This document shows positions 1,160-61,189 of a DNA stretch of 64,000 nt, piece by piece (the first letter of the stretch is position 1; each line of letters starts with the position of its first letter). Origin of the DNA: Octopus sinensis. Lineage: Eukaryota. Below the pieces are notes generated by a model. It ran no database searches and was not told the DNA's origin. It saw nothing but the letters and a program-made list of their open reading frames with translations. A program made the translations under genes and the position numbers. The stretch spans positions 33,294,001 to 33,358,000 of the forward strand of contig NC_043014.1 of the NCBI RefSeq assembly GCF_006345805.1. The letters are read 5' to 3'.

Positions 1160-58063
<56,904 letters not shown>

Positions 58064-58579: not shown

Positions 58580-60216
58580 TTGATTATAGCCACTCAGCAA
58601 AAAGACATTAGAATGAATTTGATAAAGATGAAGATTGATAAAACTTAGCCACAGAGCAACTGCAGAATCTCTGGAGACAGAAACAAAAGTATTAATTATC
58701 TCCTAAGTGACCGCAGTAAGCTAGCACAAAAAGAGTATAAGTGCATGCATGACTGTTTTTTCACTAAAAGAGTGTATTGGGATGTTAGCCAAGTTTGTGA
58801 ATACAACGTGAGGGATAAGTGATATGAACACAAGCCAGAGGCAGTTGTGATGAATGATAATGACAGGATTTTATGGGAATTTTTAATTGCAACTGAACAG
58901 TTTATTGAAACAAGATAACTTGATATGATAAGGTATACTGTAGATGAGTTAAATTAATTGTGAAAACAGCTCAATGCGAAAAACAACATAATAGGTATCA
59001 ACACTCTAGCTGTACCAGTTATAAGTTACAGCTACAATGTTCTTAACTGGACTCTAAATGAACTAATCAAAATAGATGGGAAAACAAGAAAAATAATGAC
59101 AAGATTTAGGATGCACCATCCAAATTCTGAGATAGAAAGGCTATATATACATATATCAAAGGTGGTAGAGGCCTTATACAGCTAGAAAACTATTATAACA
59201 TAACCACCATAGGACTACAGAAATACCTACTTCAGAAGCAAAGAAAACTAATACAAATAACCACAAAACATGAACAAAACAAAGAACTGTTTTCAGTCTT
59301 TAAGGAAGCTTACAAATACAAAAAAGAAATCATAGTACCTAACAACTATGAAGAAAAAGAAGAAACAACAAAAGCTGTAAAACAACTGAAATCCAAACTA
59401 AATTTGGAACAGCAACATATCATGATGAAACAATGGCAAGAAAAGCCCCCTACATGGCAAATATTGGGTTAAGCTAAACAGAAAAGAACTAACAAAGCAA
59501 AATGCCAACAAGGGCTGAGAAGCTCGGGACTCAAAGCAGAAACTGAGGGATTTTTAATTGCAGCACAAGATCAAAGCCTTCCCACCAGAAATCACCGAAA
59601 ACCCGTAGTGAAAAGAAATACAAGTAACTGCAGAATATGTGGTGATGAAGAAGAAACAATAAATCATATTGTCTCTGGCTGCCCAGTCCCGGCCAAGAAG
59701 GAATATATTCACAGACATGACAGAGCTGGGACCAATATACACTGAAAGCTATGCCAACACTATGGAATAACAATAGAAAAAAGATAGTAGAGGCATACCC
59801 AGAAGAGGTCACATAAAATACGAAAGCAGCCATACTCTAGGACATGCCAATACACACAGGTAGAGATATTAAGGCCAACAGGCCAGATATAGTTGTCAGA
59901 GATCACCAAGAAAAAAATGCTTTCTAATCAATGTATCGATACCGACAGAAGAAATGCTTCTCTAAAAGAAATGGAGAAACTTTCAAAATACGAAGATTTG
60001 GAAATAGAAGTGACTCGGATGTGGAGCCTAAAAACAGAAACAATTCCTATTATACAGTTCTATATTTAAAAGATGAGGAATTATATACATTATTTACAAT
60101 TGATGGATATTTGTTCTCATCTTGTTTGTTGTTTCGGCTGATATACCCTCCAGCCTTCATCAGGTGTCTTGGGGAAATTTCAAACCTGGGTTCTATTCCT
60201 AAGGTATTTTTCGATA

Positions 60217-60267
<51 letters not shown>

Positions 60268-60584
60268 TCACTGTCTGGAATCAAACTCGGAATCTTGGGG
60301 TTAGTAGCCCGCACTCTTAACCACTACGCCATATGTGCGTGGGCACATTAGGTATGATAAAATAACATTCAGACAAATACATAATAAAAAACACCAGGAC
60401 TAACAAATATATATAACATACAGAAAATAGCACTACCAGGCACCTATGTAAAACACTTTCCTGTGTAAAACATTTTCAATACAGTGAAAATAAGAGCACC
60501 ACAGCAAACCACAGCATATACCCAAGGCACACAGAGCTGCACTCAGTAGTGCAGTGAAAGCACATGATAAAAATAAGACTACTG
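58580..60584 (+). mobile_element. Decayed R4/Dong-like (RLE endonuclease) non-LTR retrotransposon(s)
   Basis: GLKAETEGFLIAAQDQSLPTRN...CRICGDEEETINHIVSGC...YIHRHD (CCHC knuckle), NRPDIVV, EKLSKYEDLEIEV..IPIIVG; flanked by (AAT/AAC)n. Confidence 0.85.
60055..60338 (-). mobile_element. tRNA-headed SINE-like insert with a hammerhead-like core
   Basis: Minus strand: TGGCGTAGTGG (A box) ... GAGTTTGATTCC (B box), (AAT)n, then CTGATGA-AGGCTG..CAGCC-GAAAC; removal restores the host LINE frame IPII|VGTLG. Confidence 0.7.
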
Positions 60585-60796: not shown

Positions 60797-61026
60797 ATTT
60801 CTTTAATGCCCCCAAGGGGCTACACACAGAGGGGACAAACAAGGACAGACAAACGGATTAAGTCGATTACATCGACCCCAGTGTGTAAGTGGTACTTATT
60901 TAATTGACCCTGAAAGGATGAAAGGCAAAATTGGCCTCGGCAGAATTTGAACTCAGAACGTAATGGCAGACGAAATACCACTAAGCATTTCACCCGGTGT
61001 GCTAACGTTTCTGCCAGCTTGCCACC
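60797..61026 (-). mobile_element. SINE family B, near full length
   Basis: Matches 15631-15861. Confidence 0.85.
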
Positions 61027-61189
61027 TAAAGGCCCATTTAGTCTTGTCAGTTGGCACTCACATGCGCCTATTATAAAATACATAAAATAGTTGCATATTT
61101 CTCTCTAATGCTATCCTTCTCTTTATGTGGTACTTAAAGATGATAAAGGCTTGAACAGAGAGGAAAATCTCTGTCTTCAAACCTTTTAA

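Follow-up and report, generated by a model that had tools for sequence, protein, structure and literature searches.

A putative Penelope-like terminal repeat with a tRNA-like head and a minimal hammerhead motif in Octopus sinensis

Introduction

Penelope-like elements (PLEs) are recognized in genomes by an inverted pLTR that carries a tail on one side only (PMC8557442). In vitro, this one-sided tail is explained by two internal start sites for the reverse transcriptase, RT (PMC11167929, in excerpt). The coding sequence of these elements can overlap their ribozymes and repeats: the anole Poseidon open reading frame (ORF) begins within the hammerhead (same excerpt), and the pLTR of Adineta Pen2a contains the first ORF codons (PMC3846280, in excerpt). 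The hammerheads of metazoan PLEs have been described as a dimer-type motif (Cervera and De la Pena 2014; PMC4209133, in excerpt). According to the available part of PMC10886601, autonomous retrotransposons usually use Pol II, and Pol III serves only short parasites.

The DNA considered here, termed the window, is a 64,000-nucleotide stretch of O. sinensis contig NC_043014.1. Near its right end lies an insert that the initial annotation tentatively described as a Pol III-driven, self-cleaving, Penelope-mobilised SINE/retrozyme hybrid. As set out below, the insert is almost certainly a copy of the pLTR of a PLE. The reading preferred here, in which we place moderate confidence, is that it is a solo Poseidon-type pLTR, likely copied from an RNA that started at the tRNA-like head and was probably a Pol III transcript.

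The insert and its host LINE

The insert comprises 284 nt on the minus strand (60055-60338) and lies inside the frame of a host LINE, which we take to be of the R4/Dong type from its C-terminal motifs (CCHC knuckle, RHD and PD..D). The LINE translation across the junction reads IPII/VGTL, so the frame is split cleanly, as first described. Joined, insert-free forms in public runs omit either 60055-60338 (284 nt) or 287 nt, in the latter case with 3 letters at the joint. Since exactly the insert stretch is omitted, there is neither a TSD nor a loss of target, and the absence of a TSD reported in the initial annotation is confirmed. The host sequence and the right-hand joint are as follows.

59490..60054, plus strand: decayed 3ʹ part of the host LINE, left of the insert, with CCHC knuckle and restriction-like endonuclease motifs
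60339..60430, plus strand: host LINE right of the insert, where the frame resumes past it
60339..60345, minus strand: 7-nt microhomology TGCCCAC, found both in the target LINE and in the PLE 3ʹ UTR ahead of the head

Each junction has a microhomology with the element: TAT lies at the 3ʹ end, TGCCCAC at the 5ʹ end. Because TGCCCAC is shared by the LINE and the PLE UTR, the 5ʹ boundary of the insert is ambiguous over 60339..60345. The copy in the window is solo and has the long end, with these 3-nt and 7-nt microhomologies as its joints. Two changes at head positions 2-3 are unique to it (window 60334-60345) and form, together with the flanking LINE, a perfect hairpin (TGTGC...GCACA), which points to a possible template switch at the 5ʹ junction. 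Just right of the host LINE, at ~60820-61030, lies another abundant SINE-like repeat, unrelated to the tRNA-headed PLE family.

Read along the minus strand, the insert contains the following features.

60265..60338, minus strand: tRNA-like head of the pLTR, with the A box at head positions 8-18 and the B box at 52-62
60321..60331 (read 60331-60321), minus strand: Pol III type-2 A box TGGCGTAGTGG, by motif match to what we take to be the A-box consensus
60277..60288 (read 60288-60277), minus strand: Pol III B box, C56 changed to T here (a CpG-type change)
60219..60263, minus strand: (AAT)n/(AAC)n linker, 5ʹ UTR of the PLE ORF
60055..60196, minus strand: first ~51 codons of a Poseidon-type ORF, which in autonomous copies runs on into RT-GIY-YIG
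60164..60170, minus strand: 5ʹ strand of hammerhead stem I, from the alignment of copies
60132..60163, minus strand: minimal type I hammerhead core (CUGAUGA, unpaired A, stem II, GAAA)
60163-60157, minus strand: CUGAUGA
60155-60136, minus strand: stem II, 5 bp, with a sixth G-U pair possible
60135-60132, minus strand: GAAA
60130..60131, minus strand: site of an 11-nt deletion; the palindromic half of stem III, the GUU cleavage triplet and the 3ʹ strand of stem I are gone
60055..60079, minus strand: PLE tail, ~25 nt between the two 3ʹ ends of the family; the window copy has the long end

The A and B boxes of the head stand at canonical tRNA spacing, and its acceptor stem is degenerate. The linker differs in length between copies, and the start ATG of the window copy is broken by a 1-nt deletion. 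"Tail" is used as defined for PLEs in PMC8557442 and in the excerpt of PMC11167929. The A and B boxes, (AAT)n, CUGAUGA, stem II and GAAA were all recovered at the minus-strand places first given for them, and the noted lack of stem III and the NUH site in this copy corresponds to the 11-nt deletion. Two other A/B-box pairs occur in the window, at 19536 (plus strand) and 32854 (minus strand), both unrelated to the tRNA-headed PLE family.

Apart from the one in the insert, the 64-kb window has no hammerhead-like core whose stem II is 5 bp and G/C-opened. An Rfam search matched neither a tRNA nor a hammerhead at the insert, and ARAGORN with default settings found no tRNA gene in the window; it calls the head solely at a 70% threshold, with no amino acid assigned. 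Motifs this minimal and degenerate score below these models.

The autonomous element

Outside the window, the same sequence forms part of a longer unit. In order, this unit consists of the head, (AAT)n, the ATG, the hammerhead and tail within the first ~51 codons, RT, GIY-YIG, a stop, a UTR of ~30 nt and the next head; from head to head it measures 2,605 nt (~2.6 kb). The ATG lies 34 nt upstream of CUGAUGA. The pLTR takes in the ORF's first codons and is repeated behind the ORF. What appeared in the insert to be a SINE body consists of the PLE's 5ʹ UTR and the initial ~51 codons of its ORF.

This arrangement is seen from several directions. Among loci matched through the endonuclease and UTR alone, 24 of 24 have the head right behind the ORF end; overall, the count is 30 of 30, the query locus included. 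Among loci selected by RT, 24/30 have a head ~400 nt past the RT match. At the other end of the ORF, the tail runs straight into the coding sequence in 9/30 loci chosen by the N-terminal part of the ORF (L254, L256, L264, L267, L268, L272, L275, L278 and L282). Additionally, two tail-selected loci show the C-terminus of another GIY-YIG directly ahead of the head. The frame that follows the tail aligns with the N-terminus of P0003, an 847-aa RT-GIY-YIG protein of another organism (45% identity over the ORF start; E 1e-27 for L256), and the RT-EN part is 56% identical to the same protein. The repeat-linked coding sequence is a single ORF with a PLE-type RT (RVT_1 match) and GIY-YIG at its C-terminus. 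By every feature tested, the predicted element is an EN+ PLE of Penelope/Poseidon type, the clade name being taken from the domain order and the overlap of hammerhead and ORF as in the excerpt of PMC11167929. A PDB search gave no significant match. Elsewhere in the window, the PLE thumb/HTH part of P0003 is weakly matched by tblastn at 26515-26664 (minus strand; E 0.016), which may be a remnant of a different PLE family.

None of the copies seen has an intact full-length ORF; their longest open frame measures 551 aa. With copies ~6% diverged from one another, the tRNA-headed family may be inactive at present.

A partner element was sought with PF01541 (GIY-YIG). The 50 loci examined, out of 150 matches, were mostly Neptune-type PLEs; as none matched the head or the tail, they were discarded as partners and reused as controls. 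Several of these Neptune-type PLEs carry other hammerhead cores. Six of them (L097, L098, L107, L113, L117 and L119 in G000) are high-copy, with many near-identical copies, open frames of up to 780-883 aa and a U3-A8 hammerhead variant (UUGAUAA); they look younger than the tRNA-headed family.

The hammerhead of the family

The family hammerhead was derived from an alignment of 30 copies chosen by likeness to the window copy. Its majority form has a 5-bp stem I, CUGAUGA, one unpaired A, stem II and GAAAC-GUU, in which AACGUU is palindromic. All parts of the minimal type I motif (CUGANGA, stem II, GAAA, palindromic stem III, NUH and stem I) are present; stem III and NUH, missing from the window copy, are thus intact in the family majority. 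On these grounds the family hammerhead is a complete minimal, dimer-type motif. Its folding as a single strand gives z-scores near 0, as expected for a dimer-type motif.

Individual copies vary around this form. In a set of 119 arms, 41 are exact, 37 have only a CpG-type change, 21 have other substitutions, 11 have a 3-nt deletion and 9 differ otherwise. The 11-nt deletion of the window copy occurs in two further copies among the 30 chosen by likeness and in 0 of the 119 arms, which were chosen otherwise. The recurrent 3-nt deletion, present for example in L012, L018 and L029, lies beside GAAAC and removes NUH in those 11 arms. Head and hammerhead occur together as a rule: hammerhead or tail sequence lies downstream in 27/30 loci chosen by head similarity and in 26/30 head loci chosen by position.

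Copies cross the predicted cleavage site, and neither copy end falls on it. Thirty loci were selected by the post-cleavage part, with a query that included 5 nt upstream of the site; none clearly begins at the cleavage site, and one resumes there after an internal deletion. In L165 (G000:C1), the hammerhead core is missing through an internal deletion that runs from stem I and stops precisely where cleavage is predicted. Self-cleavage does not set the ends of the copies.

Copy number, copy ends and the relation of short to long copies

Exact 24-mer matches in the 2.7-Gb genome number 6,824 for the hammerhead core and 3,221 for the head start. Reversed controls gave 0, so the family is not a product of chance. 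Between the hammerhead and the head start, ~150-250 nt apart, counts drop 2.1-fold, and they drop a further 5.1-fold across the next 28 nt, where the UTR upstream of the head has 629 exact matches (a ~4.5-fold drop allowing for two more fixed letters). The same boundary is seen in individual copies. A 5ʹ stop at most 9 nt upstream of the head is found in 23/30 position-ordered head loci and in 45/56 similarity-selected ones; of the 18 copies that pass the head upstream, 8 extend at least 176 nt.

The 3ʹ ends fall at two positions. In 63 of 72 head-to-head pairs, one copy has the long end and the other the short end, ~25 nt apart, and these same two 3ʹ ends are visible as loose ends in RNA reads. 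A TSD of at least 8 nt flanks 37 of the 72 pairs (control mean 0.25 on random re-pairing). Mobilisation by Penelope-type machinery, as first suggested, is borne out by these ends and duplications, and the tail of the insert, the ~25 nt between the two family 3ʹ ends, is the PLE tail. In sequencing runs X15-X20, the repeat is present at 75-83% of words for organisms A, D, E, F and G and at 54-58% for organisms B and C, so it is common to several related species.

The abundance of short copies that start at the head, which exceed UTR-bearing ones ~4-5 to 1, could also point to an independent, self-propagating Pol III SINE/retrozyme hybrid that cleaves itself and is parasitic on a Penelope partner. 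For such a hybrid Sm-alpha would be a precedent. Moreover, the short copies retain the A and B boxes and in the majority lack an internal terminator, so some of them could be re-transcribed. One B-box CpG has decayed less in them (changed in 8/92 short and 21/63 attached copies, p=2.5e-4, in a set for which head similarity was one basis of selection). Of 82 internally truncated arms, 7 start at most 3 nt from the cleavage site, which is ~2x the uniform expectation in a biased sample and not significant. However, the head belongs to an autonomous element, and the 93 head-start short copies have the same majority base as the 73 UTR- or ORF-attached pLTRs at all 254 of 254 columns, leaving no diagnostic column between the two sets. 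The short copies are not a separate lineage. Furthermore, copies span the cleavage site and neither start nor end there, and the mapped loci are solo, head-to-head or ORF-linked, with no tandem monomer arrays among them. In the anole element (PMC11167929, in excerpt), the RNA must include the ORF as far as +172, past the RT start sites, and mutation of the hammerhead leaves insertion normal; if the ORF requirement is valid here, the short copies would be dead ends. An independent hybrid is therefore very unlikely, and the non-autonomous, retrozyme-like character given to the insert at first is not retained.

Transcription of the element

The preferred reading, a solo pLTR copied from an RNA that started at the head, raises the question of which polymerase made that RNA. 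The family majority sequence has consensus A and B boxes at tRNA spacing, even though the acceptor stem has been lost. A Pol III start a few bases ahead of such a head is the behavior of tRNA genes. The UTR from the stop to the head is only ~30 nt long, which leaves little room for another promoter. A pattern search of 79 distant relatives found no A/B-box pair, and ARAGORN called 0 genes in the 60 of these 79 on which it was run. An apparent A box in L352 was rejected because it is stem II of the hammerhead of that locus.

The composition of the unit bears on the same question. Its sense strand (2,605 nt) has 13 TTT and no TTTT. Three Neptune PLE families of the same genome have 12 TTTT in 5.9 kb, and distant relatives with similar T content average 2.6 TTTT per kb. 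The spacer between ORF and hammerhead contains a T4 in 18 of 19 distant relatives, and an ORF of at least 1.4 kb free of T4 occurs in 3 of 51. Base shuffles of two parts of the unit gave P=0.024 and 0.23 for the absence of TTTT, and Markov models of order 1 and 2 gave 0.07 and 0.26; shuffles of synonymous codons had too little power to be informative, and frame breaks in the majority string limited them to 288 codons. Runs of G4 are likewise absent. The lack of TTTT is thus modestly significant and borderline. Together with the pile-up of 5ʹ ends at the head it fits Pol III initiation and stops short of proof.

A boundary at the head might also arise in an ordinary PLE transcribed by Pol II, in which the head of a tRNA SINE was captured as a passenger and a hairpin between UTR and head, rather than Pol III, sets the end. 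The UTR/head junction is palindromic (TGCCC-AC-GGGCA), so a hairpin could fix the 5ʹ boundary with no part played by Pol III, whether by an RT stop, by snap-back of the cDNA or by annealing of two cDNAs. Inverted copies do join at this palindrome, with AC or GT at the centre, and some copies with unique flanks have 8-10-nt fold-back ends. Palindromes at pLTR 5ʹ ends, along with fixed pLTR lengths, are found in Adineta PLEs and accompany a TATA-type promoter in PLEs described in the same source (PMC3846280, in excerpt). Kojima (2024), in the part available, argues that Pol II is obligatory for autonomous elements, and the lack of T4 is borderline, as noted. Against this, the family majority retains consensus A and B boxes despite the loss of the acceptor stem, and the T-rich spacer of 18/19 relatives is replaced here by the head. 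In addition, nine unique-flank copies end at 0 to -9 nt and have no inverted arm for annealing. An RT halted by a hairpin is expected to stop on its 3ʹ side, which here would be inside the head. Weighing these points, we consider a Pol II transcript with a hairpin-made boundary unlikely.

RNA-seq from three runs of one study, in a related species, showed no pile-up of ends, in libraries that are poor at showing such ends. Reads fall on both strands, and 88-89% run into unrelated sequence (mostly embedded copies); depth is ~5-10 on the ORF and in the thousands on the pLTR.

From the 5ʹ-end pile-up and the boxes, initiation by Pol III at the head appears fairly probable, and to this extent the initial description of the insert as Pol III-driven remains plausible. 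That Pol III transcribes the whole autonomous unit from end to end is doubtful. This wider reading is a joint claim: the Pol II promoter region would have been exchanged for a tRNA-derived internal promoter, TTTT would have been purged from 2.6 kb, an uncapped RNA would be translated behind an (AAT)n leader, and internal priming would yield SINE-like pLTR copies by the thousands as a side product. Its parts taken together are possible.

Proposed mechanism

On the preferred reading, the RNA of the element would have its 5ʹ end 0-9 nt ahead of the head, presumably through a Pol III start directed by the A and B boxes. As in the anole Poseidon element, from which the internal priming model is carried over by analogy, the RT-EN protein would nick AT-rich DNA and start cDNA at the two tail sites within the RNA. 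A start in the 5ʹ-most pLTR would then yield ~280 nt of cDNA, back to the 5ʹ end of the RNA, and thus a short, SINE-looking copy. Such short copies could arise one at a time or as head-to-head pairs. ORF-bearing copies would instead come from cDNA started in a tandem pLTR further downstream. The template would be uncleaved, in which case the dimer-type hammerhead is not needed for making these copies. The unit structure and the distributions of copy ends are directly observed.

A fixed 5ʹ end combined with internal priming offers a testable explanation of solo pLTRs in the PLE cycle, even with no Pol III read-through. A Pol III head in the pLTR of a PLE itself blurs the division of labor between Pol II and Pol III. 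If the whole unit were a Pol III transcript, it would be a natural uncapped 2.6-kb RNA that makes an 840-aa enzyme, and it would provide a ready route for the birth of SINEs. Tens of thousands of such fragments (a rough scaling from the exact counts at 6% divergence) would be wrongly taken for a SINE family.

Comparison with known systems

No tRNA-headed or Pol III-driven autonomous PLE was found in the literature searched, which did not take in repeat databases and several older papers; an annotation of the family in a repeat library (Repbase/Dfam) may already exist.

The closest described elements are Poseidon_Ac of the anole (PMC11167929, in excerpt) and Pen2a of Adineta (PMC3846280, in excerpt). 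They share with the present element a single ~840-aa RT-GIY-YIG ORF, a pLTR that includes the first codons, a hammerhead that overlaps the ORF start, two RT start sites with a tail, an inverted 5ʹ pLTR, junctions with TSDs or microhomology and a palindrome at the pLTR 5ʹ end. The pLTR described here differs in starting with an A/B-box head and (AAT)n instead of TATA/Inr or a T-rich spacer. Additionally, the tail is ~25 nt rather than 30-40, and the unit is free of TTTT.

The hammerhead itself resembles those of the PLEs in the available part of PMC4209133, which have a stem I of 5 bp, an unpaired base ahead of stem II, G10.1-C11.1, a palindromic 15.2-16.2, no loop III and a predicted need for dimers. 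It differs from them in its stem II, which is 5-6 bp here and 7-8 bp there, and the window copy is deleted at the cleavage site.

TRIMp3 elements (Cassandra, Helenus and Ajax; PMC10886601, in excerpt) similarly carry a Pol III promoter derived from a small RNA in their terminal repeat. However, each of these is a non-autonomous LTR element with PBS/PPT and a length of 0.3-1.3 kb, whereas the promoter here lies in the pLTR of a protein-coding PLE. Non-LTR retrozymes (available parts of PMC7229834 and bioRxiv 10.64898/2026.07.22.740005) have a type I hammerhead, a monomer of a few hundred nt and kinship to PLE pLTRs in common with the present copies. Unlike these retrozymes, which form head-to-tail tandem arrays and circles processed at the hammerhead, the copies here are dispersed or head-to-head, with no tandem monomers in the mapped loci and with ends off the cleavage site.

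With tRNA SINEs (SINE2), the insert shares a tRNA-like head with A and B boxes; the non-autonomy of that class is not found, as the head is inside an autonomous element and 0/254 columns set short copies apart. Sm-alpha and Sj-alpha of Schistosoma (PMC2770079 and PMC8490949, in excerpt) are also short and high-copy, with a tRNA-derived head and a type I hammerhead. Hence the combination had a name (PMC2770079), contrary to the first impression that it belonged to no named class. These elements are reported as active ribozymes in SINE-like elements, and the excerpts name no autonomous PLE that bears the head; in O. sinensis, the head lies within the autonomous element, and the hammerhead is of the minimal form. 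A tRNA head joined to a hammerhead was therefore already known from Sm-alpha; the literature searched showed no tRNA head inside an autonomous PLE.
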